DNA of 64,000 nucleotides. Source: an uncultured Candidatus Saccharibacteria bacterium (GTDB lineage Bacteria; Patescibacteriota; Minisyncoccia; Minisyncoccales; CAZKCU01). Below are positions 22,804 through 63,738 of this stretch, one piece after another. Position numbers and translations under genes: made by a program. The notes beneath the pieces were generated by a model, which searched no databases, was not told the origin of the DNA, and worked only from the letters and a program-made list of their open reading frames with translations. The first letter of the stretch is position 1. The number at the start of each line of letters is the position of its first letter. The stretch is from positions 65,246-129,245 of the forward strand of contig CAZKCU010000001.1 of assembly GCA_964551595.1 (NCBI GenBank), in the 5' to 3' direction.

Positions 22804-22916
22804 AATCTTTTAGGTTTGGTAAACTTCAACGCAGAAGACCCATACTGAAGCACATAAATATTTTATGTATTCAGCAAAAAAGCGACTAATTTTTTCCTAA
22901 TCTTTGGCGCTTATCG

Positions 22917-22947
22917 CTCTCTTAAATTTTGAAAAAATTTGAGAGAG
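22917..22947. other. 14-bp hairpin with GAA triloop
   Basis: CTCTCTTAAATTTT-GAA-AAAATTTGAGAGAG (one G-T wobble). Confidence 0.6.
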
Positions 22948-23094
22948 TAAACGGGTCTTCTTTTTTTATCTTTTTATCTTATTTTTCTTTAGGAAATCAT
23001 TTCCCGTGACGGGAAATAAATCGATTATTTCATTATCTTTGAAGTAAACACCCTTGTCAAGGGCTACAATTGTGGAAAACTTCATCTATAAATA

Positions 23095-23265
23095 TAGTCG
23101 AAGAACATCCGTTCTTCTTCACTCACCGAGTCTCGTTTGCGGGACGAAGGTGGAAAAGAGTGCGGAGCGCTCTTTGACTTCGCTGCGACTCGGGTAGGCG
23201 AAGAGATAAATCTCTTCTTCACCCTTCATTGCGATTCGAGTAACCGAGAAATCTAAAGTCCAAAG
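23095..23265. ncRNA. GC-enriched multi-hairpin region (candidate structured RNA, class unknown)
   Basis: Nested or adjacent stems: GAAGAAC-ATCC-GTTCTTC; GTCTCG-TTTG-CGGGAC; AAAGAGTG-CGGAG-CGCTCTTT; CCGAGTC...GACTCGG; GAAGAG-ATAAAT-CTCTTC. Noticeably more GC-rich than its surroundings. No ORF. Confidence 0.3.
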
Positions 23266-23439
23266 CACTAAATCACAAACTCAAAATAGTTTTGAATTTT
23301 GACATTACCTGTCCGCTGTAAGTTTTGCCCTTGGTAAAATTTGGGCGGATTAGGTTAAATTCCCGCCGCGGGAAAAAGAATATTTCTGAAAATAAGGGAT
23401 AAAGTTTGGAAACTGAACCAAACATGTTATAATTAGGCA

Positions 23440-25018
<1,579 letters not shown>

Positions 25019-36962: not shown

Positions 36963-37726
36963 TTAATAATCGCTTGTCCCCAAAACAATGCAGTGAATGT
37001 TCCTACAACAAGAAATGGCCCAAAGGGAACCTCACTCTTTAGAGTTTTTTTACCAGATATTATCAGCCCTATTCCTATTATAGCACCGATAAAAAAAGCT
37101 AGAAATAGAGCAATTAAAATATTTGGAAAACCCAAAAATAAACCCATAAAGAAAGCCAATTTTACATCGCCGACGCCCATCCATTTCCCCCGGGACATCA
37201 GCACTATCGCTCCAAAAAAAGCTGCCGCCCCCAAAGCAGAGTAAATTGAAAATTTGAGAATTGAGAATTGATTGAAAATTGATAATTGAAAATTGAAAAT
37301 TAGAGCTAATGTGATGGCTGGATAAATTATTTTATCGGGGATGATATAGTGTTTTAAGTCATAGACGAAAATGATGATTAAGAAACAAGCAATTACTAAA
37401 TAAAATATCAAATTCCAAAATCCAAATGCCAAATCGAATCCAAAATTAAAAATCCAAAATATTAAAACGGATAAAATTCCAGTAGCTAATTCAACCAATG
37501 GATATTGGAGACTAATTGGTTGGTGGCAATAGCGGCATTTTCCTTTTAAAATTAGAAAGCTGAAAATCGGGATTAAATCTTTCCAACCTAATTTGTGTTT
37601 ACAATAAGGGCAATAAGATCTCTGAATTAAAAAACTTTCGCCAGAAGGTAGGCGATAAATTATTGAATTCAAAAAACTTCCGAGGGTTAGGCCAAAAATA
37701 AAAACTATAAAATAGAAAAACCCCAT
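36938..37726 (-). CDS. pilD: Prepilin peptidase (A24 family)
   Basis: 262 aa. N-terminal Cys pairs CPYC...CRYC, polytopic, catalytic-Asp contexts YIIPDKI and MGVGDVKL. Confidence 0.92.
   Translation of the reverse strand: MGFFYFIVFIFGLTLGSFLNSIIYRLPSGESFLIQRSYCPYCKHKLGWKDLIPIFSFLILKGKCRYCHQPISLQYPLVELATGILSVLIFWIFNFGFDLAFGFWNLIFYLVIACFLIIIFVYDLKHYIIPDKIIYPAITLALIFNFQLSIFNQFSILKFSIYSALGAAAFFGAIVLMSRGKWMGVGDVKLAFFMGLFLGFPNILIALFLAFFIGAIIGIGLIISGKKTLKSEVPFGPFLVVGTFTALFWGQAIINWYLNLFL
37244..37306. repeat. Heptanucleotide tandem tract (9 units, 63 nt) inside pilD
   Basis: AAATTGA AAATTTG AGAATTG AGAATTG ATTGAAA ATTGATA ATTGAAA ATTGAAA ATTAGAG. Encodes FNFQLSIFNQFSILKFSIY. Confidence 0.8.
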
Positions 37727-42402: not shown

Positions 42403-42534
42403 AGTTAGTCGCTCGCCTCCGGCTCGCTCTTTAGAAACCCTCGGTTTCTAACGTTTTCGCCTTCGGCGAAATCCTGTTTTCCTGCACGGGGAAACCGAAG
42501 GGTTTCCCCGACCCCCTTCCGATACGGGAAGGCC
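42403..42534 (-). other. GC-rich array of four stable hairpins immediately upstream of pilB (candidate RNA element)
   Basis: Plus-strand stems: TTAGAAACC-CTC-GGTTTCTAA (42431-51); TTCGCC-TTC-GGCGAA (42456-70); CGGGGAAACC-GAAG-GGTTTCCCCG (42487-510); CCTTCC-GATACG-GGAAGG (42515-32). Also a direct repeat GCTCGC..GCTCGC (42411-42428). Confidence 0.45.
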
Positions 42535-42804
42535 CTAATAAGGTATAAAGGGATTTTCTCGACCTATTTCTTCTTCAAAAGGCTTAATTTCTTCAAAAGA
42601 TTGAAACTCTTTTAAGATAGGACTTTTTAATACTCCAAAATTTATTTCTATTTTCGGAGGTTCTAAAATTATCGGAGCCAAAACAGGTTCTGGCTTAACC
42701 AAAAAACCTCGCCAAACTACAACAAAAATTAAAATAATTACTACCGCTAAAACTAAAATTAGATATTTTTGTTTCTTTCTGCGTTGAAAAAATGTAATAG
42801 CCAT
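42535..42804 (-). CDS. Small single-TM protein, possibly a PilP-like pilus accessory protein
   Basis: 89 aa. N-terminal TM YLILVLAVVIILIFVVVW. C-terminal GRENPFIPY resembles the (R/K)xNPF motif of PilP-type proteins. Located between pilO and pilB. Confidence 0.4.
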   Translation of the reverse strand: MAITFFQRRKKQKYLILVLAVVIILIFVVVWRGFLVKPEPVLAPIILEPPKIEINFGVLKSPILKEFQSFEEIKPFEEEIGRENPFIPY

Positions 42805-42825: not shown

Positions 42826-42865
42826 AAGCGTTCGCTCAGCTCACTGTAATTTACTTCGTAAATTA
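42826..42865 (-). repeat. Core-less copy of the CCCACTGTTCACACACAG repeat family
   Basis: GCGTTCGCTCAGCTCACTG|TAATTTACTTCGTAAATTA matches 58938-58996 (CTGTTCGCTTAGCTCACTG|CTGTGTGTGAACAGTGGG|TAATTTGTTTCGCAAATTA) minus the 18-nt core. Overlaps the pilO stop. Confidence 0.7.
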
Positions 42866-43420
42866 ATAAGAGTAAACTCTTATGCTTAAATCAAAATCAA
42901 AAGGAGTTTCCTGTGTGGGAACAGTGAGTTTTTCTTCAGGAGAGGAAAAAGAGATGTTTTCTATCTTAATGAGTCTGGCTGATTTTTCTAAAGTCGAAAG
43001 AAAATTTCTAAAAGCAGAATAAGAACCAGAAACTCCAAGATTGAGACTAATCTCTTTAATTCCGGGCTGTGTGGGAACAGTGGGCTTTTCTTTAGGGGTA
43101 GTCATGGAAAAGGAATCGACATTTCTAAAAATCAGACCGTTTTGAGAACTGGCTTTTTGTAAAAAATTAAACAGAGAAGGCAAAGAAGGATTAAAGGGAA
43201 GAGCAGAATCGATTTTAGAAAGTTCTGTCTTATATTTTTTCAGTTCTTCGGAAACTTCCTGGAGATTTGAAATATGTTTTTCTTTGTACTGAAGTTCAAC
43301 TCTTTTTTTTCCAATTTCAAGCTGGAGGCTTCTTAGGTCCTGGTACTTTGGCCAGATTAAGAAAGTCCCTATTACCAAAATGCTGATGAGTAAAATGACA
43401 ATGGCGATTGACTTTGACAT
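42863..43420 (-). CDS. pilO: PilO-like pilus assembly protein
   Basis: 185 aa. N-terminal TM, a coiled coil, then a ferredoxin-like C-terminal region. Syntenic after pilM and pilN. Confidence 0.6.
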   Translation of the reverse strand: MSKSIAIVILLISILVIGTFLIWPKYQDLRSLQLEIGKKRVELQYKEKHISNLQEVSEELKKYKTELSKIDSALPFNPSLPSLFNFLQKASSQNGLIFRNVDSFSMTTPKEKPTVPTQPGIKEISLNLGVSGSYSAFRNFLSTLEKSARLIKIENISFSSPEEKLTVPTQETPFDFDLSIRVYSY

Positions 43421-46235: not shown

Positions 46236-48407
46236 ATGAATCTCACTACTCCAATTGAGGAAATTCCTCGGGTTGGTCTTATTTACCAAAAAAAGTTAAA
46301 AAAACTAGGAATCAAGAATATCCGTGATCTTTTTTTTCATTTTCCTCATCGCTATGAGGATTTTTCAAAGATAATCCCAATTTCAAAAGCCGAAGCCGGT
46401 GGCCCTTTTTGTTTTCAAGGAGAAATTTTAGATACAAAAAATATCTACACTTCCAGAAAAAGAATGGTTTTAACCCAGGCAACTATTGGCGACGAAACGG
46501 GAAAACTAAAAGTAATTTGGTTTAACCAGCCTTATCTCATCAACACTTTTAAAAAGGGGGATTATGTTTGTTTGGCAGGAAAAATAGCAAAAAAAGGAAG
46601 CGCAAAATATTTATCCAGCCCGGCATACGAAAAAATATCTCCAACATCTAACACCCAACATCTAACATCTAACCTTACCCATACCGGAAGATTAATTCCG
46701 GTTTATCCAGAAACAGAAGGATTATCCTCAAGATGGTTAAGATTTATTGTCAAACCTCTTTTGATAAAATTAAAAAACCAAATTTCAGATTCTCTGCCAG
46801 AAAAAATCAGAAAAAAATATGATTTTTTACCTCTCCAAAAAGCAATTTGGCAAATCCATTTTCCTGACTCCTTGAAATTAGCCAAAGAAGCAAAAAAAAG
46901 ATTTGCCTTTGAGGAGTTATTTAATCTTTCACTTTTTGTTTTAAGAGAAAGGCTAAAATTAGCCAGAGAAAAAGCAATTCCCATTCCTTTAAATCTGGCT
47001 CTTATTAAAGAATTTATTAAAAGCTTATCTTTCAAACTAACCGCTGCTCAAAAAAAATCTGCCTGGCAAATTTTAAAAGATTTAGAAAAGCCTCGGCCAA
47101 TGAACAGGCTTTTAGAAGGAGATGTTGGTTCAGGAAAAACAGTGGTAGCAATGATGGCTGCTTTAAATGTGGCTAAAGCAGGTTTCCAAATTGCTTTTAT
47201 GGCTCCAACTGAAATTTTGGCAAAACAGCATTTCCAAGAATTAATTAAATTTTTTAAAAATTTTAATTTAGATATTGGCCTTTTGACCGGAAAAGAAGAC
47301 AAATTTTTCTCCAGAAAGTTAAAAAATGAAGTTATTGAAATTTCCCGGAAAAAACTTCTTGAAAAAACAAAGAAGGGAGAAATAGATATTTTAATTGGCA
47401 CTCACGCTTTACTTCAAGACAAAGTAAAGTTTGGAAATTTAGCTTTAGTAACTTTAGATGAACAGCACCGTTTTGGAGTAGAGCAAAGAGCTAAGCTTTG
47501 TAAATCATCAAAAGATACCAACGGAAAAAAAATAATCCCTCATCTACTTTCAATGACTGCCACCCCTATCCCCCGCACCCTGTCTTTAACTATTTACGGC
47601 GACCTTGATTTATCTATTATTGATGAATTACCCAAGGGTAGAAAAAAAATAATTACAAAAATCGTCCAGTCAAAAGATAAAAAAGAAACCTATAATTTTA
47701 TCAGAGCCGAAGTTAAAAAGAACCGCCAAGTTTTTGTAATCTGTCCTCGGATTGAACCCGTCAAAACCTCTCCAGAAAATTTAGATGGTGAACTTTCACA
47801 GCAGGTATTAAGTTGGATGGAGGTAAAAGCGGTAAAAGATGAATATCAGAAACTTTCAAAAGAAATTTTCCCTGACTTAAAAATCGGCATGCTCCACGGC
47901 AAAATGAAAACTCAAGAAAAGGAAAAAGTAATGAAAGATTTTAAAGATAAGAAAATTGATATTTTGGTGTCAACTTCTGTGGTTGAGGTAGGTATTGATA
48001 TTCCTAATGCCACGGTAATGATGATTGAGGGTTCAGAAAAATTCGGTTTAGCTCAACTTCATCAGTTCAGAGGTAGAATAGGACGTTCTGATTTTCAATC
48101 TCACTGCTTTCTATTTACAGATGCGCCCGGCCTCGTAACAAACCGACGACTAAGAGCACTTCTCTCCTGCGAGAATGGTTTTGAGTTAGCGGAAAAAGAT
48201 TTGTTAATCCGGGGGCCCGGAGATTTTTCTGGTTCAAGACAATGGGGAATTCCCGATTTAACCATGGCTTCTTTAACAGATGTATTTTTAGTTGAAAAAG
48301 CCAGAGAGGAAGCTCAAGAAATTTTACAAGAAGACCCGGGATTAAAAAAATACCCCCAATTGCGAGAGAGATTAGAGGAATTTGGAAAAAGAATCCACCT
48401 TGAGTAA
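46236..48407 (+). CDS. recG: ATP-dependent DNA helicase RecG
   Basis: 723 aa. Wedge/OB N-terminal region, Walker A GDVGSGKT, DEQH box (TLDEQHRFG), helicase motif VI QLHQFRGRIGR. Confidence 0.95.
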   Translation: MNLTTPIEEIPRVGLIYQKKLKKLGIKNIRDLFFHFPHRYEDFSKIIPISKAEAGGPFCFQGEILDTKNIYTSRKRMVLTQATIGDETGKLKVIWFNQPYLINTFKKGDYVCLAGKIAKKGSAKYLSSPAYEKISPTSNTQHLTSNLTHTGRLIPVYPETEGLSSRWLRFIVKPLLIKLKNQISDSLPEKIRKKYDFLPLQKAIWQIHFPDSLKLAKEAKKRFAFEELFNLSLFVLRERLKLAREKAIPIPLNLALIKEFIKSLSFKLTAAQKKSAWQILKDLEKPRPMNRLLEGDVGSGKTVVAMMAALNVAKAGFQIAFMAPTEILAKQHFQELIKFFKNFNLDIGLLTGKEDKFFSRKLKNEVIEISRKKLLEKTKKGEIDILIGTHALLQDKVKFGNLALVTLDEQHRFGVEQRAKLCKSSKDTNGKKIIPHLLSMTATPIPRTLSLTIYGDLDLSIIDELPKGRKKIITKIVQSKDKKETYNFIRAEVKKNRQVFVICPRIEPVKTSPENLDGELSQQVLSWMEVKAVKDEYQKLSKEIFPDLKIGMLHGKMKTQEKEKVMKDFKDKKIDILVSTSVVEVGIDIPNATVMMIEGSEKFGLAQLHQFRGRIGRSDFQSHCFLFTDAPGLVTNRRLRALLSCENGFELAEKDLLIRGPGDFSGSRQWGIPDLTMASLTDVFLVEKAREEAQEILQEDPGLKKYPQLRERLEEFGKRIHLE
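46643..46677. repeat. 35-nt block of five heptamers inside recG
   Basis: AACATCT AACACCC AACATCT AACATCT AACCTTA. Encodes TSNTQHLTSNLT. Confidence 0.8.
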
Positions 48408-50140: not shown

Positions 50141-51190
50141 ATGAACATTTTAGCTATTGAAACATCATGCGACGATACCTGTGTCGCTGTATTGAAAGTT
50201 GGAAATTGTAAATTGAAAATTCTAAGCAACATCGTTTCCTCCCAGGTAAAAATTCATGCAAAATATGGAGGGGTTTATCCAACTTTAGCAAAAAGAGAAC
50301 ATCAGAAAAATTTGCCTTTGGTATTGAAAAGAGCTTTAAACAAAGCCAAGGGCCCAAAAGTTGATTTAGTTGCCGTAACTGTTGGACCAGGATTAGATCC
50401 TTGTTTGTGGACAGGAGTAAATTTTGCCAAAGATTTAGCCCAAAAATCAGACCTGTCAATAATTCCTGTAAATCATATTGAGGCACACATACTCGCCAAC
50501 TTTATTAATGAACAACGAACAACGAACAACGAACAGTTATTTCCGGCGATTTGTTTAGTAGTTTCCGGTGGCCATACCCAATTAATTTTGATGAGAGGGT
50601 ACGGGAAATACAAAATTTTAGGTGAAACAAGAGACGATGCGGCTGGCGAATGCTTTGATAAAATAGCCAGAATTTTAGGGTTAGGATATCCGGGAGGCCC
50701 ATTAATTGCTGCCGAGGCAGCAAAACTAAAAACTAAAAACTATCAACTAAAAATTAAATTGCCGAGGCCAATGATCTATCAAAGAAATTATGACTTCAGT
50801 TTTTCAGGGCTAAAAACAGCAGTTTTATATAATTTCAAAAGCCAATCAGAAAAAATCAGGAAATCAAAAAAATATATTCAGGCAATATCCGCTGAAGCTC
50901 AACAAGCAATAATTGACGTTTTGATTAAAAAAACCGTTCGAGCTGCCAAAGATTATAAAGCAAAAACTATAATTCTTGGCGGCGGGGTTGCTGCCAATGA
51001 TGAATTACGTAAGCAACTTATGTCAAATGTCAAATGTCAAATGTCAAATGTTAAATTCTTGGTTCCGCCAAAAAAATTCTGTACTGATAATGGAGCAATG
51101 GTAGCGGTAACTGCTTATTCTCATTGGTTTTGGGGAAAAGAGAAAAAACCAAAAAGTGTTGAAGCAAATGCCAATTTAAGGTTAGAATAA
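50141..51190 (+). CDS. tsaD: tRNA N6-threonylcarbamoyladenosine (t6A) synthesis protein TsaD
   Basis: 349 aa. ILAIETSCDDT, HIEAH, VVSGGHTQL, DFSFSGLKT, CTDNGAMVA. Confidence 0.95.
   Translation: MNILAIETSCDDTCVAVLKVGNCKLKILSNIVSSQVKIHAKYGGVYPTLAKREHQKNLPLVLKRALNKAKGPKVDLVAVTVGPGLDPCLWTGVNFAKDLAQKSDLSIIPVNHIEAHILANFINEQRTTNNEQLFPAICLVVSGGHTQLILMRGYGKYKILGETRDDAAGECFDKIARILGLGYPGGPLIAAEAAKLKTKNYQLKIKLPRPMIYQRNYDFSFSGLKTAVLYNFKSQSEKIRKSKKYIQAISAEAQQAIIDVLIKKTVRAAKDYKAKTIILGGGVAANDELRKQLMSNVKCQMSNVKFLVPPKKFCTDNGAMVAVTAYSHWFWGKEKKPKSVEANANLRLE
50191..50225. repeat. Heptamer block 1 in tsaD
   Basis: ATTGAAA GTTGGAA ATTGTAA ATTGAAA ATTCTAA (5 units, 35 nt). Confidence 0.7.
50507..50541. repeat. 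Heptamer block 2 in tsaD
   Basis: AATGAAC AACGAAC AACGAAC AACGAAC AGTTATT. Encodes NEQRTTNNEQ. Confidence 0.75.
50722..50756. repeat. Heptamer block 3 in tsaD
   Basis: AAAACTA AAAACTA AAAACTA TCAACTA AAAATTA. Encodes KLKTKNYQLKI. Confidence 0.8.
51020..51054. repeat. Heptamer block 4 in tsaD
   Basis: ATGTCAA occurs 4 times, then ATGTTAA. Encodes MSNVKCQMSNVK. Confidence 0.85.
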
Positions 51191-51203
51191 ATATATATAC
51201 CTA

Positions 51204-51229
51204 AGTCTGTCGGTATCAAATACCGACAG
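51204..51229. repeat. Palindromic 26-nt element, intergenic copy (tsaD-valS spacer)
   Basis: AGTCTGTCGGTAT-CAA-ATACCGACAG, a 10-bp stem. Reverse-complement match to 13182-13206. Confidence 0.8.
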
Positions 51230-51252
51230 GCCTATGCCTCACTATTATATAT

Positions 51253-53337
51253 ATGAAACTTCCAAAAATTTACGAACCAAAAAAAGTTGAAAGGAAACTT
51301 TACAATCTCTGGGAAAAGAGTGGTTTTTTTAATCCTGACAAATTGCCGGGTAAAAGAAAAAAAACTTACACCATTGTCATTCCGCCTCCAAATATTACCG
51401 GATCTTTGCACATGGGTCACGCCCTGAATGTGATTTCGCAGGATATTTTAATCCGCTGGAAGCGGCTTCAAGGATATAAAGCTTTGTGGCTGCCAGGAAC
51501 CGACCATGCCGGTATTTCCACTCAATACGTGGTGGAAAAAGAATTAAAAAAAGCAGGTATTACTCGTTTTGATTTGGGTAAAGAAAAATTTATTGAAAGA
51601 GTCTGGCAATGGAAAAAAAAGTATGGAAATATCATTTTGGAACAATTTAAAAAATTGGGATGTTCTTTAGATTGGTCAAGGACCCGTTTTACCATGGACA
51701 ATGATTATAGCAAAGCTGTAAAAGAAGCGTTTTTGCATTATTACAAAAAAGGGTTGATATACCGTGGCAAAAGAGTTGTCAACTGGTGCCCAAGGTGCCA
51801 AACTTCATTGTCTGATTTGGAAATTGAATACAAAGAAGAAAAAGGGAAATTATGGTATATAAAATACCCATTAGTTCAAAGTTCAAAGTTCAAAGTTAAA
51901 AGTTATATTACAGTTGCGACAACTAGACCTGAAACGATGCTTGGGGATACGGCAGTAGCGGTAAATCCTAAAGATAAAAGATACAAAGATTTAATCAGTA
52001 AAAAAGCAATTTTGCCTCTAGTTAATCGTAAAATTCCCATTATTGCTGATAGATTAGTTGACCCTGAATTTGGAACAGGAGCGGTAAAAATTACTCCGGC
52101 TCACGATTTAACAGATTACCAAATAGGTCAAAAACATAATTTGGAAAGCTGCCAAGTTATTAATGAAAGAGGTGAAATTACAAAAGAAGCCCCTCTTCCC
52201 TACCAAGAGTTAAAGGTTCTTCAAGCTCGCCAAAAAGTAATAAAAGACTTAAAAGAACTGGGGCTTTTAGAAAAAATTGAATATTATACTCATCAAATTC
52301 CCAAATGTTATCGCTGTTCTGCCATTTTAGAATTAATTCCTTCTGAGCAATGGTTTTTAAAAATGAAAGAACTTGCCAAAATGGCAGAAAGACCAGTAAA
52401 GGAAGGAAAAATAAAATTTCATCCAAAAAAATTTGAAAAACCATATTTTGAATGGCTAAAAAATATAAAAGATTGGTGTATTTCTCGGCAGATTTGGTGG
52501 GGCCATAAAATTCCTCTAAAGGGCGAAGCTGACGTTTTGGATACCTGGTTTTCTTCAGCACTTTGGCCGTTCGCGACTCTTGGCTGGCCAAAATCAACAA
52601 AGGATTTGAAAAGATTTTATCCAACCGATGTCTTAATAACTGCCCGCGATATTATTCCTCTCTGGGTAGTCAGAATGATATTTTCTGGAATGGAATTTAT
52701 GAAAAAAGTTCCGTTTAAAAATGTCTATATCCATGCCATAGTTTTAACCAGAGAGGGAAAAAGAATGTCAAAATCATTGGGCACAGGAGTGGACCCAATA
52801 AATCTTATTGAAAAATACGGAGCTGATGCCACTCGATTTGGAATTGCCTGGCAAATTATGGGAGGACAGGATATAAGATTCGTAGAAGATAATATTGTAA
52901 TGGGAAAAAAATTCTGTAATAAGATTTGGAATGCCTCCCGCTTTATTTTACTACAAATCAAAGCCAACAGAGAACGGTTCTCTGTTAAGTTGGAAAGGGG
53001 TAAAAATTTAACGGCTGCCGATAAAAGAATATTGAAGCTATTAGGCAAAACAATAAAAGCGGTAAATAAGGATTTGGAAAGTTTTCAATTTGGTAAGGCG
53101 GCTCATAACCTTTATCAATTTTTTTGGCATGACTTCTGCGACATATATATTGAAAGAGCTAAAATCCAGGAAGATAAAAAAAATACCCAAAAAATATTAT
53201 TATATGTATTACTAAATTCTCTAAAACTTCTGCATCCTTTCATTCCTTTTATTACCGAGGAAATTTATCAAAAATTGCCGATTAAAAATAAAAAAAGGTC
53301 TCTAATGATTGAGGAATGGCCCAAGCCATTTTCTTAA
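51253..53337 (+). CDS. valS: Valyl-tRNA synthetase (short form, no C-terminal coiled coil)
   Basis: 694 aa. HMGH, editing-domain TTRPET and GTGAVKITPAHD, RMSKSLG (KMSKS). Ends soon after the anticodon-binding domain. Confidence 0.93.
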   Translation: MKLPKIYEPKKVERKLYNLWEKSGFFNPDKLPGKRKKTYTIVIPPPNITGSLHMGHALNVISQDILIRWKRLQGYKALWLPGTDHAGISTQYVVEKELKKAGITRFDLGKEKFIERVWQWKKKYGNIILEQFKKLGCSLDWSRTRFTMDNDYSKAVKEAFLHYYKKGLIYRGKRVVNWCPRCQTSLSDLEIEYKEEKGKLWYIKYPLVQSSKFKVKSYITVATTRPETMLGDTAVAVNPKDKRYKDLISKKAILPLVNRKIPIIADRLVDPEFGTGAVKITPAHDLTDYQIGQKHNLESCQVINERGEITKEAPLPYQELKVLQARQKVIKDLKELGLLEKIEYYTHQIPKCYRCSAILELIPSEQWFLKMKELAKMAERPVKEGKIKFHPKKFEKPYFEWLKNIKDWCISRQIWWGHKIPLKGEADVLDTWFSSALWPFATLGWPKSTKDLKRFYPTDVLITARDIIPLWVVRMIFSGMEFMKKVPFKNVYIHAIVLTREGKRMSKSLGTGVDPINLIEKYGADATRFGIAWQIMGGQDIRFVEDNIVMGKKFCNKIWNASRFILLQIKANRERFSVKLERGKNLTAADKRILKLLGKTIKAVNKDLESFQFGKAAHNLYQFFWHDFCDIYIERAKIQEDKKNTQKILLYVLLNSLKLLHPFIPFITEEIYQKLPIKNKKRSLMIEEWPKPFS
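51873..51907. repeat. 35-nt block of five heptamers inside valS
   Basis: AGTTCAA occurs 3 times, then AGTTAAA AGTTATA. Encodes VQSSKFKVKSY. Confidence 0.85.
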
Positions 53338-53393
53338 TTGCGAAGCAATTGCCCACTGTTCACACACAGCAGGGAGCGAAGCGACCAGTTAAT
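53334..53393 (+). repeat. Interspersed ~60-nt repeat, copy a (core CCCACTGTTCACACACAG)
   Basis: TTAATTGCGAAGCAATTGCCCACTGTTCACACACAGCAGGGAGCGAAGCGACCAGTTAATTA. Near-identical to 56342-56404. Starts at the valS stop codon. Confidence 0.85.
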
Positions 53394-55821: not shown

Positions 55822-56340
55822 CTAATTTTTAGTAAAGACTAAACCATAATGGTAAGCTCCGGCTGTAAATTCTTTCTTAAGCTTAAGTTTAGCATCTTTT
55901 GCCATTTTTTTGACTGAACCTGCTGAGACTCTTCCTTTTTGGGGACCAAAGGGAATTTTGGGCAGCCAATCAACAACTAAAATTTCTCCTCCTTTTTTTA
56001 AAATCCTTTTCGCTTCAGAAAAGGCCCTCCTTTTATTTTCTATCTGAAACAAAAGATTGGTCATTAAAACTAAATCACAACTTTTTTCAATAATATCCAC
56101 CTTTTTTTCTACATTGGCACGAATTGTCTCAATATTTAAAACTTTCTCCAGTTTTGCCCTGCTTTGAAGAGCGGAAAGCGGCTCCTCTAAGATATCAATG
56201 GCATAGATTTTCCCTTCCTCCAATCTTTTAGCCAAAGGAATAACCCAACCGCCTGAGCCGCAACCAAAATCACAAACTGTCATATCTTCTCGCAAATTAA
56301 TATTATTTAATACTTTATTTGGATTTAGGAAACCTTCCAT
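55822..56340 (-). CDS. Class I SAM-dependent methyltransferase
   Basis: VCDFGCGSGGW motif I. The track start (56364) runs into the repeat at 56342-56404, so ATG 56340 (MEGFLNPNK) is preferred. Confidence 0.8.
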   Translation of the reverse strand: MEGFLNPNKVLNNINLREDMTVCDFGCGSGGWVIPLAKRLEEGKIYAIDILEEPLSALQSRAKLEKVLNIETIRANVEKKVDIIEKSCDLVLMTNLLFQIENKRRAFSEAKRILKKGGEILVVDWLPKIPFGPQKGRVSAGSVKKMAKDAKLKLKKEFTAGAYHYGLVFTKN

Positions 56341-56341
56341 A

Positions 56342-56404
56342 TTAATTGCGAAGCAATTGCCCACTGTTCACACACAGCAGGGAGCGAAGCGACCGGTTAA
56401 TTAA
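56342..56404 (+). repeat. Interspersed repeat, copy b
   Basis: TTAATTGCGAAGCAATTGCCCACTGTTCACACACAGCAGGGAGCGAAGCGACCGGTTAATTAATTA. Lies between the gyrA stop and the methyltransferase start. Confidence 0.85.
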
Positions 56405-58937: not shown

Positions 58938-58996
58938 AACTGTTCGCTTAGCTCACTGCTGTGTGTGAACAGTGGGTAATTTGTTTCGCAAATTAA
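58938..58996 (-). repeat. Interspersed repeat, copy c (inverted orientation)
   Basis: The reverse complement reads TAATTTGCGAAACAAATTACCCACTGTTCACACACAGCAGTGAGCTAAGCGAACAG. Lies between the gyrA start and the upstream small ORF, supplying that ORF's last codons. Confidence 0.85.
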
Positions 58997-59171
58997 GTGG
59001 TATCTCCAATTTGGGCAATTCTTTTTGAAAAGCTTCTCCTTTAAAGCTTTTTATTCTTTGTTGAAAACTCTTAGCCCACCAAATCAGAAGCGAAAATCCA
59101 ATAATAACAACTACTGACCAAAGGATTATCTTTCTTATATATTCCGGTTGATTTCGAAGTTTTTGTAACAT
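58953..59171 (-). CDS. Small single-TM hypothetical protein
   Basis: 72 aa. [20 protein letters not shown]. Start abuts the MBL gene stop. C-terminal PTVHTQQ is repeat-encoded. Confidence 0.45.
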
Positions 59172-59873: not shown

Positions 59874-61001
59874 ATGAATAGCATGAAAGATATTTTTGAA
59901 AAAAATAATTTATTGAAGCCACCGAAAGTTGGTGAAATTCTTGAGGGCCAAATTATTGGCAAAGGACGCTCATCTGTTTTTTTTAATTTAGGACCTCTGG
60001 GAACAGGAATAATTTATGGAAAAGAGCTTCAAGAATCTAAGAATAGTTTAAAAGATTTAAAAATTGGTGATAGTATTTTTGTAAAAATAGTAGATCTCGA
60101 AAATGAAGAAGGCTATATTGAATTATCTTTAAAACAGGCTGGCCAAGAACTCACCTGGGAAGCCCTCAAAGAGAAAAAAGAAAAAAATGAGACCGTGAAA
60201 GTTAAAATTTCAGGAGCAAATAAGGGAGGCTTACTGACAGAGATTTTAGGAACTCCTGCTTTTTTGCCAGTATCACAATTATCTCCAGAACACTATCCTC
60301 GGGTTGAAGGAGGAGATTCATTAAAAATTTTAAGAGGGCTCCAAAAATTTATAGGAAAAGAATTGGAAGTAAAAATCCTTAATCTTTCCCAAAAAGAAGG
60401 AAAATTTATTTCGAGCGGAGCAAGAAACAAGATTCTACCGAGCGAAGCGAAACGGGTTCTTATTTTATCTGAAAAAGCAAAAGAAATTGAGAAAATAAAA
60501 GAAACTTTAAAGGGCTATAAAGTAGGAGATGTGGTTAAGGGAGAAATTAGCGGGCTGGTTGACTTTGGAGCTTTCATGCTTTTTGGCAAAGGTCTCGAGG
60601 GTTTAATCCATATCTCTGAATTTGATTGGAAAATTATTCAAGACCCTTCTGAAATTGTCAAGGTTGGGCAAAAAATTCGAGCAAAGATTATTGAAATTTC
60701 AGATAATAAAGTCTTTTTATCTTTAAAAGTTCTAAAGAGAGATCCCTGGAAAAATATTGAGAAAAAATATAAAAAAGGCGATAAGGTTTCGGGCAAGGTA
60801 ACTAAATTTAATCCTTTTGGTGCCTTTGTTCAGATTACGCCAAAAATCCAGGGACTAGTCCATATTTCCGAATTTGGAACGAAATCTAAAATGGAAGAAA
60901 TTTTAGAGATTGATAAAAAATATGATTTCCAGATTTTATCAATTGACCCAAAAGAGCACCGAATGAGTTTAAAATTAATTTCGAACGAAGTGGGAAAATA
61001 A
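59874..61001 (+). CDS. S1 RNA-binding-domain protein (ribosomal protein S1-like, about 4 S1 repeats)
   Basis: The track starts at TTG 59847; ATG is at 59874. Repeated S1 motifs VGEILEGQIIG, GAFMLFGKGLEGLIHISE, GAFVQITPKIQGLVHISE. Confidence 0.85.
   Translation: MNSMKDIFEKNNLLKPPKVGEILEGQIIGKGRSSVFFNLGPLGTGIIYGKELQESKNSLKDLKIGDSIFVKIVDLENEEGYIELSLKQAGQELTWEALKEKKEKNETVKVKISGANKGGLLTEILGTPAFLPVSQLSPEHYPRVEGGDSLKILRGLQKFIGKELEVKILNLSQKEGKFISSGARNKILPSEAKRVLILSEKAKEIEKIKETLKGYKVGDVVKGEISGLVDFGAFMLFGKGLEGLIHISEFDWKIIQDPSEIVKVGQKIRAKIIEISDNKVFLSLKVLKRDPWKNIEKKYKKGDKVSGKVTKFNPFGAFVQITPKIQGLVHISEFGTKSKMEEILEIDKKYDFQILSIDPKEHRMSLKLISNEVGK
60411..60465. repeat. About 55-nt interspersed element, copy 2 (in-frame inside the S1 gene)
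   Basis: TCGAGCGGAGCAAGAAACAAGATTCTACCGAGCGAAGCGAAACGGGTTCTTATT. Encodes SSGARNKILPSEAKRVLI between KEGKFI and LSEKAKE. Confidence 0.7.
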
Positions 61002-61031
61002 CTTATAGAGAACGATTAAATTGATGGAAAA

Positions 61032-62954
61032 ATGAAAAATCTAATTAAAAATTTTATTTTAGTAACTTTAATTCTCCTGATTATCTCGGGTATCTTTACC
61101 TTGTTCACTCAACCCTTTGAAAAAGAAAAAGAAATTTCTTTAACTCAATTAGTTGAAGAAGTTAACCAGGAAAAAATTAAAAAAATTGTAGTTTCCGGTC
61201 AAGAACTTCAAATAATATACCAGGATGATGCTAAAGCTAAATCTAGAAAGGAAACAGAAATAGCTTTTTCAGAATCTTTAATAAATTATGGAATAAATAA
61301 AGAAAAATTAAAAAAAGTGGAAATTGAAACAGAAAAAGAAAAAGAAAGTTTGCTTTGGTTGTGGTCAACTCTAATAATTCTGCTTCCCTTAGTTTTATTT
61401 GGTTTATTTTTCTGGATGATGTTCCGCCAGGCCAAAACCGGAGCAATGCAGGCCTTTAATTTTTCAAAAGCCAGAGCCCGGCTTTTTGGAGCAGAAGGTC
61501 ATCCAAAAGAAAAAATTACTTTCAAAGATGTTGCCGGCTTAAAAGAGGCAAAAGAAGAATTAAAAGAAATCGTTGATTTCTTAAAAAATCCCAAAAAATA
61601 TTTAAAGATGGGGGCGAGGATACCAAGAGGGGTTCTCTTAATGGGGGCAGCTGGAACAGGAAAAACAATGCTCGCTAGAGCTGTGGCCGGTGAGGCTAAT
61701 GTCCCTTTCTTTTCTATTTCCGGTTCAGAATTCGTAGAAATGTTTGTGGGGGTCGGAGCAGGGAGAGTGCGTGATCTTTTTTCTACCGCTAAAAAAGCAG
61801 CCCCTTCTTTGGTTTTTATTGATGAACTTGACGCTATTGGCAGACACCGGGGAGCTGGGCTTGGGGGAGGACACGACGAGAGGGAACAGACATTAAACCA
61901 AATATTAGTAGAAATGGATGGTTTTGAAAGAGAAACACAGGTCATAGTTATTTCTGCGACCAATCGTCCAGATATCCTGGACCCAGCTCTTTTGCGACCC
62001 GGTAGATTTGACCGAAAAGTAGTTTTGGACTTGCCTGATATTAACGACCGGGAAGAAATTTTAAAAATTCACTGTCGAGGAAAGCCTTTGGCTTCAAATA
62101 TTAATCTAAGGGAAGTAGCTGAAAGAACTCCGGGATTTTCCGGAGCTGATGCCGCAAATGTGGTTAATGAAGCAGCGATTTTAGCTGCCAGAAGAAATAA
62201 AAATCAAATTTATCAAGAAGAGTTTTTAGAATCAATTGAAAAAGTTTTGTTGGGTCCTGAAAGAAAAAGTCATATCTTATCCAAAAAAGAAAAAGAAATT
62301 GCTGCTTTCCATGAAGCAGGCCACGCTTTGGTTTCCGCTTCTTTGCCTGAAGCTGAACCGGTTAGAAAAATCTCAATTATTGCCAGGGGTATGGCTGCTG
62401 GCTACACTCTAAAAATGCCAGCCGAAGAAAGAAAAATTAAGACCAAAAAAGAATTTTTAGCTGAAATGGCAACTTTACTTGGCGGGTACTGTGCTGAAAA
62501 AATAAAATTTAAAGAAATTACCACCGGAGCAGCTAATGATTTAAAAAGGGCTTCCGATTTAGCCAGAAAGTTAGTTAAAGAATATGGTATGTCTCCTTTA
62601 GGACCTGTTTCCTTTGGTGAAAAGGAAGAATTAGTTTTTTTGGGAAAAGAAATTTCCGAACAAAGAAACTACTCTGAAAAAGTAGCTGCTAAAATTGACA
62701 AAGAAGTTGAAAAATTTGTCAAAAACGCAGAAAAAGAAGCAACAAAACTTTTATTCAAAAAGAAAATATTACTTGAAAAGATTGCCAAAACCTTAATTAA
62801 AAAAGAAACCATTGAAAGAAAGGAATTTGAGAGTTTAATCGAGAAAAAGAGGGAATCAGTAAAGCCCCACACCAATAGGGCACAGTTTAAAGTTGGCGCG
62901 AAGCGCAGTGCCCCATCTGGTATGGGGGTAAAAGTAAAAATCAAGCAACTGTAA
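61032..62954 (+). CDS. ftsH: ATP-dependent zinc metalloprotease FtsH
   Basis: 640 aa. Two TMs, Walker [12 protein letters not shown] region, HEAGHA zinc site. Confidence 0.97.
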
Positions 62955-62957
62955 CAA

Positions 62958-63029
62958 GGGCACGTAGCTCAATGGCGGAGCATTTCTCTTATAAAGAAAA
63001 GGATGTTGGTTCGAGTCCAACCGTGCCCA
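62958..63029 (+). tRNA. tRNA-Ile (anticodon UAU)
   Basis: Acceptor GGGCACG/CGTGCCC. D-arm GCTC-AATGGCG-GAGC. Anticodon arm TTTCT-CTTATAA-AGAAA. T-arm GTTGG-TTCGAGT-CCAAC. Confidence 0.85.
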
Positions 63030-63031
63030 CT

Positions 63032-63104
63032 GGGCACTTGGCGCAGTGGTTAGCGCGTCTCGTCGACATCGAGAAGGTCAGAGGTTCAAATCCTCTAGTG
63101 CCCA
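63032..63104 (+). tRNA. tRNA-Val (anticodon GAC)
   Basis: Acceptor GGGCACT/AGTGCCC. D-arm GCGC-AGTGGTTA-GCGC. Anticodon arm TCTCG-TCGACAT-CGAGA (position 33 reads C rather than the usual U). T-loop TTCAAAT. Confidence 0.8.
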
Positions 63105-63105
63105 C

Positions 63106-63738
63106 ATGGAATTTAATATCCTTTATGAAGATGAAAATGTTTTAGTAATTGATAAACCAGCAGGGGTAAATTCTGACGACTTTAAAAAAAGGGTTCACAG
63201 ATTAGATAAAGACACTTCGGGAATTCTTTTGGTAGCAAAAAACGATAGGGCCTTAGATTTTTTGCAGGAACAATTTAAAAACAGAAAAGTAGAAAAGAAA
63301 TATTTAGCCCTGGTAATCGGCAATCTGAAAAATAACGAAGGTGAAATTGAAACCCTTGTTGGCCGCTCACCAGGAGACAAAAGAAAACAAAAAGTATACT
63401 TGCCTCACGAACCAAGCTCCCAAGGAAAAAGAATTGCTGTTACCAAATATAAAGTGCTGCAAAGATTTAAAGATTATGATTTGATTGAGGTTAAGCCTCT
63501 TTCGGGCAGGAAGCATCAGATTAGAACCCATTTTGCTTATTTGGGCCACCCCATAGCCGGTGATAAACTATATGGGTTTAAAAACCAGTCCTGCCCTGAA
63601 GAACTAAAAAGACAATTTTTACATGCCACCTATCTTAAAATAAAGTTAACCGGTGGCAAAGTAAAGCCCACTGTTCACACACAGGAGTTTACATCAAAAC
63701 TACCAGCAGATTTAAAAAAAGTTATTAAAAATTTATGA
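63106..63738 (+). CDS. RluA-family pseudouridine synthase (no S4 domain)
   Basis: The track ORF (63046) overlaps tRNA-Val, so ATG 63106 (MEFNILYEDENVLVIDKPAG) is preferred. Catalytic HRLDKDTSGILLVAKN; GRKHQIRTHFAYLGHPIAGD. Confidence 0.88.
   Translation: MEFNILYEDENVLVIDKPAGVNSDDFKKRVHRLDKDTSGILLVAKNDRALDFLQEQFKNRKVEKKYLALVIGNLKNNEGEIETLVGRSPGDKRKQKVYLPHEPSSQGKRIAVTKYKVLQRFKDYDLIEVKPLSGRKHQIRTHFAYLGHPIAGDKLYGFKNQSCPEELKRQFLHATYLKIKLTGGKVKPTVHTQEFTSKLPADLKKVIKNL
63650..63690 (+). repeat. Partial copy d of the interspersed repeat, in-frame inside the RluA-like gene
   Basis: GTTAACCGGTGGCAAAGTAAAGCCCACTGTTCACACACAGGAG. Exact 18-nt core. TTAACCGGTGGC resembles the inverted right arm of copies a and b. 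Encodes LTGGKVKPTVHTQE. Confidence 0.75.

Follow-up and report, generated by a model that had tools for sequence, protein, structure and literature searches.

An 18-nucleotide module of Patescibacteria that appears to have been copied alone and recently into genes and spacers, lengthening proteins by six amino acids without disrupting them

Repeat elements of the window

The window, that is the whole 64,000-nt stretch of DNA that was analysed, contains valS, the identity of which was confirmed, gyrA, a methyltransferase gene and genes for RluA- and PilO-like proteins; a type IV pilus gene cluster adjoins the repeat copies. An earlier note on this DNA described an interspersed repeat of about 60 nt with at least five copies, and a repeat family is indeed present: the 18-nt core CCCACTGTTC[N]CACACAG matches the window six times, whereas no match is expected and none was found in 100 shuffles. 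Exact cores are located at 53352-53369(+), 56360-56377(+), 58976-58959(-) and 63667-63684(+). The inventory comprises three full units of hairpin (H), core and module (M), three solo cores in genes, one core-less unit and one unrelated 130-nt repeat. All of these elements are confined to 21 kb, and core copies were not found in positions 1-42000 of the window or in about 9.7 kb of identical sequence past each of its ends.

42409..42538, + strand: family B multi-hairpin repeat (..GTTTTCCtgcacGGGGAAACcgaaggGTTTCCCC..), core-less in the window
42828..42866, - strand: core-less H+M unit (TTAATTTACGAAGTAAATTA + CAGTGAGCTGAGCGAACGC) on the stop codon of the PilO-like gene
42911..42928, - strand: older solo core CtCACTGTTCcCACACAG (CTCACTGTTCCCACACAG, LTVPTQ) in the PilO-like gene
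43067..43084, - strand: solo core, C variant CCCACTGTTCcCACACAG, in frame (PTVPTQ) in the PilO-like gene 42863..43420
53334..53388, + strand: full unit 1, between the valS stop (53335-53337) and a PrsW-like gene; H 53334-53351 (TTAATTGCGAAGCAATTG), core 53352-53369, M 53370-53388 (CAGGGAGCGAAGCGACCAG)
56342..56396, + strand: full unit 2, takes up the spacer that separates the gyrA stop from the methyltransferase start, in antisense orientation relative to the two genes; H 56342-59, core 56360-77, M 56378-96
58940..58996, - strand: full unit 3, of a subfamily with a 7-bp stem, just upstream of gyrA
63667..63684, + strand: solo core, in frame (PTVHTQ) in the RluA-family pseudouridine synthase gene
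~23381-24254: IS1595-family element with unrelated 24-nt ends, the only transposase in the window

The copies named in the earlier note are real, but two intragenic solo cores (43084-43067(-) and 42928-42911(-)) had been overlooked. The hairpin AATTGC-GAA-GCAATT and the second GCGAAGC are present as described, and the sense orientation of four of the five listed copies was correctly read. The methyltransferase ORF that starts with GTG (55822..56364) carries a spurious extension compared to the ATG at 56340, as had been proposed. It was further claimed that the repeat donates the C-terminal residues PTVHTQ to two proteins. This holds for a 72-aa ORF (58953..59171), whose C-terminal residues are encoded by full unit 3 and whose tail reads ...LPTVHTQQ before the stop; in the RluA-like protein, however, the insertion is internal, 18 residues from the C-terminus, and what had been taken for a partial 60-nt repeat is the 18-nt core only, which inserts six amino acids. 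The idea of one family of about 60 nt with partial and core-less members had to be abandoned, since hairpin, core and module occur independently of each other.

The host repeat

The unit that hosts the core in the three full copies, here called family A, consists of an AT-rich hairpin with a GAA-type loop cap and the module CAGKGAGCnnAGCGAMCGG. The hairpin is predicted in all four family A units of the window (three full, one core-less), and compensatory changes in H (GC/GC to AC/GT and CC/GG) were found. About 18 full units in other contigs have the order H-core-M, which is shared by the three window copies. Core-less family A units (hairpin plus module 3; n=8) all read ..ATTA/CAG.., with the slash marking the junction, and 16 of 18 core-bearing units read ..ATTG-core-CAG... 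Terminal inverted repeats of the MITE type, for which a test had been recommended, are absent from family A: the left end reads TTAATT(T)GC and the right end ..GGTTC or ..GGTTTG, and only the two A1 copies of the window have TTAATT at both ends. TTAA-like or 5-10 nt direct repeats surround three of the four family A insertions of the window, and the fresh solo cores lack any. Where family A units form pairs (L012, L056, L085, L061), these are direct tandem dimers and not inverted. A search for intrinsic terminators (GC-rich stem, sense T-run) gave a single match, 58956-58975, which lies antisense to copy 3; hairpin H itself is AT-rich and lacks a T-run.

Family B can also serve as a host. Its window copy is core-less; elsewhere the core occupies the loop of the family B GGGGAAAC/GTTTCCCC hairpin (contigs L005, L017, L020, L031, L036, L058, L088, L090 and L107).

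Comparison with relatives

The presence/absence comparison suggested earlier was carried out, and seven of the eight window elements proved to be polymorphic: they are missing in relatives that are 90-95% identical, so the insertions are recent, with gain and loss being distinguished by parsimony from two relatives per site. At the valS end, L156 has the hairpin alone (TTAATTGTGAAGCAAAT) and lacks the core, M and about 35 nt more; the contig of L099 stops 19 nt short of full unit 1. The 63-nt segment 56341-56403, which contains full unit 2, is missing in L155 and L156, in which gyrA and the methyltransferase gene are 1 nt apart. Full unit 3 is missing in L155, L156 and L157 (empty site gatacca/gaaattaATG). 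The core-less unit is a 45-nt insertion and the family B repeat one of 130 nt, both missing in L015 and L099; a 10-nt direct repeat (ATTAATTTAC) flanks the core-less unit, so that its left hairpin arm was already part of the empty site. The solo core in the RluA-like gene adds exactly 18 nt to the sites as they stand in L155 and L156 (gtaaaA/GAAttt became gtaaaG-core-GAGttt), and the closest protein homologue, P0001 (89%), lacks the insertion. Likewise, the core at 43067..43084 adds exactly 18 nt compared to L015 and L099 (gaaaaA/CCAgga became gaaaaG-core-CCCgga); its variant is identical to that of the older copy 156 nt away. This older core (42911..42928) is the only window element common to the relatives and reads CCCACTGTTCCCACACAG in L015 (CP179888.1) and L099.

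The seven new elements fall within 21.3 kb of 83.6 kb (p = 0.0016), and no private copies of the relatives' own were found in about 64 kb of their fetched sequence. One sample contains both insertion-free and insertion-bearing populations, which are about 90% identical. At least three samples yielded independent assemblies of the insertion-bearing haplotype, which is thus not an assembly artefact.

The core in other genomes

Copies are not restricted to this locus, and local duplication does not explain them: about 140 distinct low-GC core copies were collected from genomes of several Patescibacteria lineages and from groundwater metagenomes, although the loci were fetched by an exact core match with A or C at position 11, which biases copy perfection, variant frequencies and lineage range. 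In this sample, position 11, a second codon base, is freely variable and is the single free position. The complete genome of the relative CP179888.1 (639,534 bp) contains just five exact copies. Matches outside the CPR (about 10 in high-GC genomes and 12 in metagenomes) were treated as chance, as 596 Gb should contain about 35 matches by chance alone. Rfam searches at the gathering threshold returned tRNAs alone, and at E up to 1 over 42300-64000 no match was obtained at the copies; phage and plasmid collections likewise contained no match to the core. Neither the core sequence nor the peptide was found among 8 million full texts of the literature, nor were reports on uptake sequences or repeats of Patescibacteria.

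The core is found in diverse contexts: solo, in tandem arrays of two to three, in families A and B, in palindromes with TACGAAT arms and in housekeeping genes. As a solo element it occupies about 59 independent sites, each in unrelated flanking sequence. Inside genes lie 82 of 126 copies, 66 in sense and 16 in antisense orientation, and the commonest frame, PTVHTQ, is used by 45 of these 82. The length of the core is divisible by three and five of its six frames lack a stop codon; further frames, including both other sense frames and antisense, are in use, e.g., CPLFTHS in TsaD and AHCSHTA in RNase HII. In-frame cores were found in the genes for RluA, PilO, TsaD, RNase HII, a DksA-like protein, L7/L12, L22, L31, RpoA, ArgS and UvrA. 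Its codons are rich in GC and unusual for these genomes. The core has neither a terminal inverted repeat nor a dyad and is not palindromic, and its best fold is a 4-bp CTGT/ACAG stem (-1.2 kcal/mol, z = -1.5).

In RluA-like genes, one codon boundary is occupied in several lineages, while the nearest relatives are empty. Carriers include the decayed forms PTVHAQ, PTVYTQ, STVYTQ and PTIHTR, and the nearest homologues of each carrier lack the insertion. The repeated occupancy of this boundary could reflect the transfer of short allele patches between species instead of independent insertion. Old copies decay, and there is no sign of selection for function; the perfect conservation of nucleotides among orthologues, which had seemed to signify function, was an artefact of exact-match fetching, and a protein search finds decayed as well as empty orthologues.

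Several readings were considered and dismissed. The resemblance to the tRNA-Ile/tRNA-Val junction, which had led to speculation about tRNA ancestry, is a 9-nt match, of which about 0.5 are expected by chance in the 128-kb two-strand search space, and it depends on the TG beside the core, a part of the host hairpin and not of the core itself. An origin from 23S rRNA (ACUGUUUAUCAAAAACACAG) was discarded because the 23S of Nealsonbacteria in L021 carries the standard sequence and not the core. Genetic code 25, under which a GGA/TGA swap in module M seemed synonymous, was rejected as well: the differences between the hairpin arms are compensating indels, TGA terminates long ORFs that are otherwise free of it, and the gene calls of the relatives fit code 11.

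Junctions and target sites

Both fresh intragenic insertions add exactly 18 nt and change the base at position -1 from A to G. Across the census, 72% of the flanks have G and 0% have C at position -1, positions -6 to -2 are A/W-rich, and at position +1 C (70%) and G (26%) predominate. Solo insertions follow A-runs, and often they lie where two units of a 7-nt tandem array meet. Of period-7 arrays, 31 were counted within 25 nt of a core compared to 3.4 expected, a 9-fold enrichment. Seven is the only array period enriched beside cores, is also the commonest short period in these genomes, and the arrays are in phase with the core. In the same TsaD loop, the window has an array, and L141 has an array and a core.

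The pattern X6-G-core-X7 is present in 13 of 84 solo copies (0.8 expected). It had been read as a 7-nt target duplication but was reinterpreted as insertion into pre-existing heptamer arrays, because such intragenic copies remain in frame. General targeting of hairpin loops was also rejected: flank complementarity exceeds that of shuffled partners in spacer copies only, where it comes from three loci with TACGAAT arms, and is not above shuffled partners in intragenic copies.

Origin and mode of spread

We consider it probable that the presumed 60-nt repeat is a nested mosaic, in which a REP-like family A was invaded by a separate, selfish and frame-neutral 18-nt module in a Candidatus Nealsonbacteria genome. 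The empty-site alignments further suggest that this module was copied recently and alone into genes and spacers, whereby six amino acids were added and proteins apparently remained unbroken. The core would be copied, not moved, into sites of the type A-A-W-W-W/S-A; the base before it turns into G, so that a 19-mer (G + core) effectively replaces one base with a net gain of 18 nt. Preferred landing sites are unit boundaries of pre-existing heptamer arrays, the end of the family A hairpin H and the loop of the family B hairpin, and new copies tend to arise near old ones. It is tempting to speculate that copying proceeds by template-directed DNA synthesis, as a copy-choice or prime-editing-like patch and not by cut-and-paste transposition, although we hold this only tentatively. 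Synthesis might be primed from a 3' end in the A-run, with another core copy, often in tandem, or its transcript as the template, and rejoining might occur via 1-3 nt of microhomology. Passive template switching would predict less sharp ends of the unit and less uniformity of its sequence between distant lineages than are observed, which favours a sequence-specific machine.

Such a machine could be a dedicated trans-acting transposase, integrase or nickase that recognises CCCACTGTTC-N-CACACAG and makes 7-nt staggered cuts, with the heptamer arrays being footprints of cutting and fill-in. The sharp ends, the identical sequence in distant lineages, the burst of insertions in the window lineage, the exclusive enrichment of period-7 arrays and the X6-G-core-X7 copies all speak for it; nevertheless, we regard it as rather unlikely, as both fresh intragenic insertions replaced one base and lack a target duplication, and intragenic copies with an apparent duplication amount to +25 nt and would be out of frame unless the array pre-existed. 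Moreover, the 18-mer has no terminal inverted repeat or dyad, and no candidate enzyme lies near any copy. For template-directed copying, too, neither an enzyme nor a template RNA was found. A search of all ORFs for reverse-transcriptase motifs was negative, and no RAYT-like gene was noticed in the window, where most ORFs between 23 and 64 kb were Pfam-scanned or carry Pfam annotations on syntenic relatives. The IS1595-family transposase was rejected as a mobiliser, since it has unrelated ends, occurs as a single copy in a syntenic position and is without homologues in the other fetched loci (L001-L157).

The remaining explanations are far less probable. A single MITE- or REP-like element of about 60 nt, of which core-only and core-less copies are truncated or decayed forms, would account for the common H-core-M order and the compensatory changes in the hairpin, but the empty-site alignments speak against it: where the window has a solo core, relatives show an intact empty site and the difference is a clean 18-nt insertion. 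In addition, the core-less unit was recently inserted by itself, the core occurs in unrelated hosts and at about 59 solo sites, and terminal inverted repeats are absent; we thus give this reading very little credence. Hardly more credible is a selected DNA or RNA signal, be it a DNA uptake sequence of these naturally competent bacteria, a site for a chromosomal protein or an mRNA signal. The occurrence in several lineages, in genes as well as spacers and mostly in sense, and the neighbouring pilus cluster would fit, but five exact copies in 639,534 bp, the seven of eight sites unshared with close relatives and the decay of old copies do not, and the bias in sense and frame arises because the target is A-A-R/G, typically a Lys codon followed by a codon that starts with G. 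Selection at the protein level for a (K)PTVHTQ peptide motif, suggested by the predominance of that frame, can practically be dismissed: the other sense frames and antisense are used, many copies are non-coding, and the nucleotides are identical except for a second codon base, in GC-rich, atypical codons.

If the mosaic reading is taken a step further, the module might represent an undescribed kind of mobile DNA in Patescibacteria, the smallest known with 18/19 nt. A template-directed or site-specific machinery would write it into A-rich sites of the heptamer type and would also generate the unusually abundant 7-nt arrays, which occur even in essential genes; the module would spread between lineages and keep remodelling protein loops in genomes usually considered streamlined; we put this forward as a possibility that we would not yet bet on. 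The genomes of CPR/Patescibacteria are held to be minimal and to contain hardly any mobile DNA, and here a burst of tiny insertions separates coexisting populations. The word can be tracked across species and resides in or near essential genes (the gyrase neighbourhood, RluA, PilO, TsaD, ribosomal proteins), which it does not inactivate. A dedicated mechanism, if one exists, would be a natural writer of short inserts with a defined product and a site preference, of evolutionary as well as technical interest, and a source of new protein loops and heptamer arrays. Even if the process is passive, the word can be used to track strains and to measure microindel dynamics in bacteria that have not been cultivated.

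Comparison with known systems

Rickettsia palindromic elements (RPEs) are selfish repeats that lie in frame in unrelated housekeeping genes of a reduced genome, where the encoded peptide is tolerated; they are about 150 bp long, palindromic and limited to Rickettsia (PMC10969869). The core resembles them in being in frame in unrelated protein genes, but it has 18 nt, is not palindromic and is also found in other repeats and in spacers. In SPDIR, a few bases are replaced by an ectopic single strand that uses microhomology at either junction, a process presumed to take place at the replication fork (bioRxiv 10.1101/2023.11.22.568220). Similarly, 1-4 bases are replaced here by 19-22 nt, and both fresh events would fit this type (A replaced by G + core; ACCA replaced by G + core + CCC); however, SPDIR products are variable and extremely rare, whereas here one defined 18-mer recurs dozens of times across lineages.

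Family A resembles REP/REPIN sequences as a short extragenic hairpin repeat on gene ends, and hairpins of the GNA-capped GCGAAGC type would be stable as single-stranded DNA. In contrast to REP/REPIN-RAYT systems, family A lacks a GTAG-type head and inverted pairs, and the core has no hairpin. Like MITEs, the window elements are small, non-autonomous, interspersed and presence/absence-polymorphic, and they overlap start and stop codons, but they lack terminal inverted repeats and, as far as the window was searched, a parent IS, and a consistent target duplication seems to be missing. To our knowledge, 18 nt is well below the size of the smallest MITEs. The DUS and USS of Neisseria and Pasteurellaceae are short, exact, non-palindromic words located in tolerated frames of genes and in spacers and common to related species; the core differs from them in being about 100 times less dense, in having positions that are unconserved in close relatives and in arising by insertion rather than point mutation. 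In cyanobacteria, heptanucleotide STRRs of unexplained origin likewise form abundant tandem arrays, and we know of no link between them and a dispersed 18-mer. The heptamer arrays described here differ in that they also occur within coding regions, in phase with the core.

Architecture of the repeat

The 18-nt core CCCACTGTTCACACACAG, which reads PTVHTQ in its commonest frame, is present as an exact match at 53352(+), 56360(+), 58976..58959(-) and 63667(+), and two variants of it lie at 43084..43067(-) and 42928..42911(-); 100 shuffles yielded 0 core matches. Three units are full and consist, in this order, of an AT-rich hairpin (H) with a GAA-type loop, the core and a module M with the consensus CAGKGAGCnnAGCGAMCRG. 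The copies within the window are:

53334-53388, plus strand, full unit
56342-56396, plus strand, full unit
58996-58940, minus strand, full unit
42866-42828, minus strand, core-less unit of H and M
63667, plus strand, solo core (without H and M) in an RluA-family gene (63046..63738)
43084..43067 and 42928..42911, minus strand, two solo cores in a PilO-like gene (42863..43420)

An earlier note had described a single interspersed family of about 60 nt. Re-reading of the copies bore out its coordinates and details, among them the false GTG extension of a methyltransferase ORF, the PTVHTQQ-stop tail of a 72-aa ORF and the sense orientation of four of its five listed copies, and valS was identified correctly. 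All copies on its list are real, but the two PilO copies and an unrelated 130-nt repeat (family B) had been missed, and the RluA copy, taken for a partial repeat, is the core only. The family B copy, a multi-hairpin repeat at 42409-42538, has a PilB-like ATPase gene on one side and an ORF of 89 aa on the other. The related contigs L015 and L099 lack this copy. Many contigs contain further members of the family, some of them with the core in one hairpin loop and some without it.

JGI contig Ga0315544_1000009 matches the window at 100% identity, and the complete Candidatus Nealsonbacteria genome CP179888.1, which has five exact cores in its 639,534 bp, is 88-95% identical to the window over about 8 kb. 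Assemblies from other samples contain this haplotype, complete with every copy, at 99.9-100% identity; the copies are thus not artefacts.

Distribution and settings of the core

When one genome per species was scanned for the exact pattern, 40 stretches matched, about 30 of which are in Patescibacteria (Nealson-, Wildermuth-, Gribaldo- and Paceibacteria and MAGs labelled Saccharibacteria). Since about 35 matches to the core pattern are expected by chance across the entire 596-Gb collection, the signal lies in the enrichment within this small phylum. At least 114 stretches, chiefly low-GC groundwater and sediment contigs, were found in a metagenome scan, and none in an exact-pattern scan of the viral collection. 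In total, 139 distinct low-GC core instances were counted over 953 kb. The core is found inside about 18 units of family A, the REP-like host unit of H and M, in the loop of the family B hairpin GGGGAAAC/GTTTCCCC, in the middle of TACGAAT/ATTCGTA palindromes, as tandems of two or three copies, and by itself at about 59 independent sites. The core is missing from eight family A units, and at the valS end the related contig L156 has kept the hairpin alone. H, core and M are thus separable parts, and the core is an independent module.

Family A units are often direct tandem dimers, one unit with and one without the core, as in the following fetched loci:

L012, 4020-4130
L056, 1030-1140
L085, 2930-3040
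L061, 1090-1200

Three loci (L009, L010 and L038; a Rhizobiaceae MAG contig and scaffolds of about 4.3 kb of Thalassococcus profundi and Alcanivorax profundi) share near-identical high-GC sequence (1-3 mismatches per 118 nt) around a chance core match, which may be a contaminant or a mobile element in those assemblies.

Genes contain 82 of 126 copies, of which 66 are in sense orientation, 45 of them read as PTVHTQ, and 16 in antisense orientation; TsaD, RNase HII, DksA-like, L7/L12, L22, L31, RpoA, ArgS and UvrA are among those hit. The core is tolerated in genes because it preserves the reading frame and because five of its six frames contain no stop codon. Selection on the peptide was excluded, as the sole freely variable base, position 11, is a second codon position and the core is also read in other frames.

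Recency, recurrence and decay

Relatives with 90-95% identity cover window positions 38-53 kb (L015, L099) and 52.7-64 kb (L155, L156, L157). Seven of the eight window elements are missing from them, each site being cleanly empty; the 42911 copy alone occurs in relatives as well, and these have no private copies in the roughly 64 kb fetched. This comparison points to recent insertion in the window. L156 and one insertion-bearing contig come from the same sample, so two populations coexist. Out of 83.6 kb, the seven new elements take up a span of 21.3 kb (p = 0.0016), and the 9.7 kb flanking each window end contain no copies.

Six of the best 120 RluA homologues have an insert, every one at the same K/EF boundary, in the forms PTVHTQ, PTVYTQ, PTVHAQ, STVYTQ or PTIHTR. 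The closest homologue (89%) lacks it, as do the nearest neighbours of all four homologue carriers tested and of the window protein. The core in an orthologous ABC-transporter spacer of one genome (L089) is inverted relative to that of another (L066). Thus either the site was a repeated target or short patches were swapped; core copies also decay. Their apparently perfect conservation is an artefact, since census loci were fetched by exact match to the core.

Junctions and heptamer arrays

In each of the two fresh solo insertions, the gain is exactly 18 nt and the A in front of the core has become G (a slash marks the insertion point):

gtaaaA/GAAttt becomes gtaaaG-core-GAGttt
gaaaaA/CCAgga becomes gaaaaG-core-CCCgga

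The same shift is seen in family A, where core-less units read ATTA/CAG (8 of 8) and core-bearing units ATTG-core-CAG (16 of 18). Across the census, G makes up 72% of position -1 and C is absent there, positions -6 to -2 are A/W-rich, and position +1 is C in 70% and G in 26%. The patch of G, core and CCC looks as though a tandem copy had been its template. What resembles a target duplication of 6-7 nt, X6-G-core-X7, surrounds 13 of 84 solo copies (0.8 expected); since intragenic copies of this kind stay in frame, we now interpret it as insertion where two units meet in a pre-existing (S-A-A-W-W-W-W)n array. Period 7 is the commonest short-period class of tandem arrays in all low-GC loci (255 arrays in 864 kb) and the only one enriched near cores (31 versus 3.4 expected). 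At one TsaD loop, an array in the window corresponds to an array plus core in L141.

Period-7 arrays within coding regions of the window, four of them in TsaD and one in valS, are located at:

37243-37301
46643-46673
50191-50221
50510-50535
50722-50758
51020-51056
51873-51904

One intragenic example, ATGTCAA x5, reads MSNVKCQMSNVK. Multiples of three are what one expects in coding DNA, which makes a period of 7 odd.

Classification and possible mechanism

The earlier note had named a match to a known Rfam family as a refutation; there is none at the copies, even at E up to 1 over 42300-64000. Searches gave no similar phage or plasmid sequences, and neither core sequence nor peptide was found among 8 million full texts. 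The thermodynamic signal is weak except for hairpin H, whose stems show compensatory changes. The core lacks features that define MITEs, REPINs, RPEs and uptake sequences, and it is no terminator. In behaviour it comes closest to Rickettsia palindromic elements, whose insertions into housekeeping genes are in frame (PMC10969869), and the host unit most resembles REP elements. We rate the core as a small non-autonomous repeat of a new variety; that it reflects a new insertion mechanism is a real possibility, though in our view less likely than not.

Downstream of an A-run, one base gives way to a defined 19-mer (G plus core), which is copied, not moved, often near an existing copy. In the mechanism that we tentatively favour, at less than even odds, a 3' end within the A-run would prime template-directed synthesis on another core copy, often a tandem one, or on its transcript, and the nascent strand would return to the target guided by microhomology. 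SPDIR microindels resemble this proposed step; the core differs in having a privileged template. The main rival, a sequence-specific enzyme cutting with a 7-nt stagger, would account better for the sharp ends, the identical core across lineages and the heptamer arrays, but it fits the duplication-free +18 events poorly, and we rate it, well below even odds, as somewhat less probable than templated synthesis from the A-run. No reverse transcriptase was found in a motif search of all ORFs.

The IS1595-family (ISXO2-like DDE) transposase of the window (gene 23440-24210, element 23381-24254) was rejected as mobiliser, its ends being unrelated and its position fixed in synteny. Candidate inverted ends of 24 nt bound the element, and its flanks (aaaagaa / taaagaa) are rich in A. 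Being single-copy and in the same place in all related contigs, it may be old or domesticated.

Other features of the window and its relatives

Close relatives differ from the window by many further small hairpin indels, several capped by GCGAAGC, a motif present 10 times in the window (3.2 expected). They include a 38-nt insert within the 3' end of ftsH and the 48-nt tttaccccgttaaatcccGCGAAGCgggtGCGAAGCaatttaacgggg, and are located at:

window 62879-62916
window 51191-51243
window 60978-61023
L015/L099, at window 45465

In L155, an 816-nt insertion (9109-9925) that the window lacks lies exactly between tRNA-Ile and tRNA-Val (window 63030); it encodes a 236-aa ORF, whose sole match is a weak N-terminal HTH_28, and may be a small mobile element. 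The tRNA-Ile (62958-63030, ARAGORN) has the anticodon TAT, an uncommon bacterial means of reading AUA. Upstream of the transposase gene, a gene-free stretch of 636 nt (22804-23439) without Rfam match contains several GC-rich hairpins, for instance tttcccgtgacgggaaa and ttcccgccgcgggaa. It is preceded by a 3,299-aa ORF with FG-GAP and BNR repeats (12907-22803), whose G+C of 0.41-0.45 is above that of the rest of the window.
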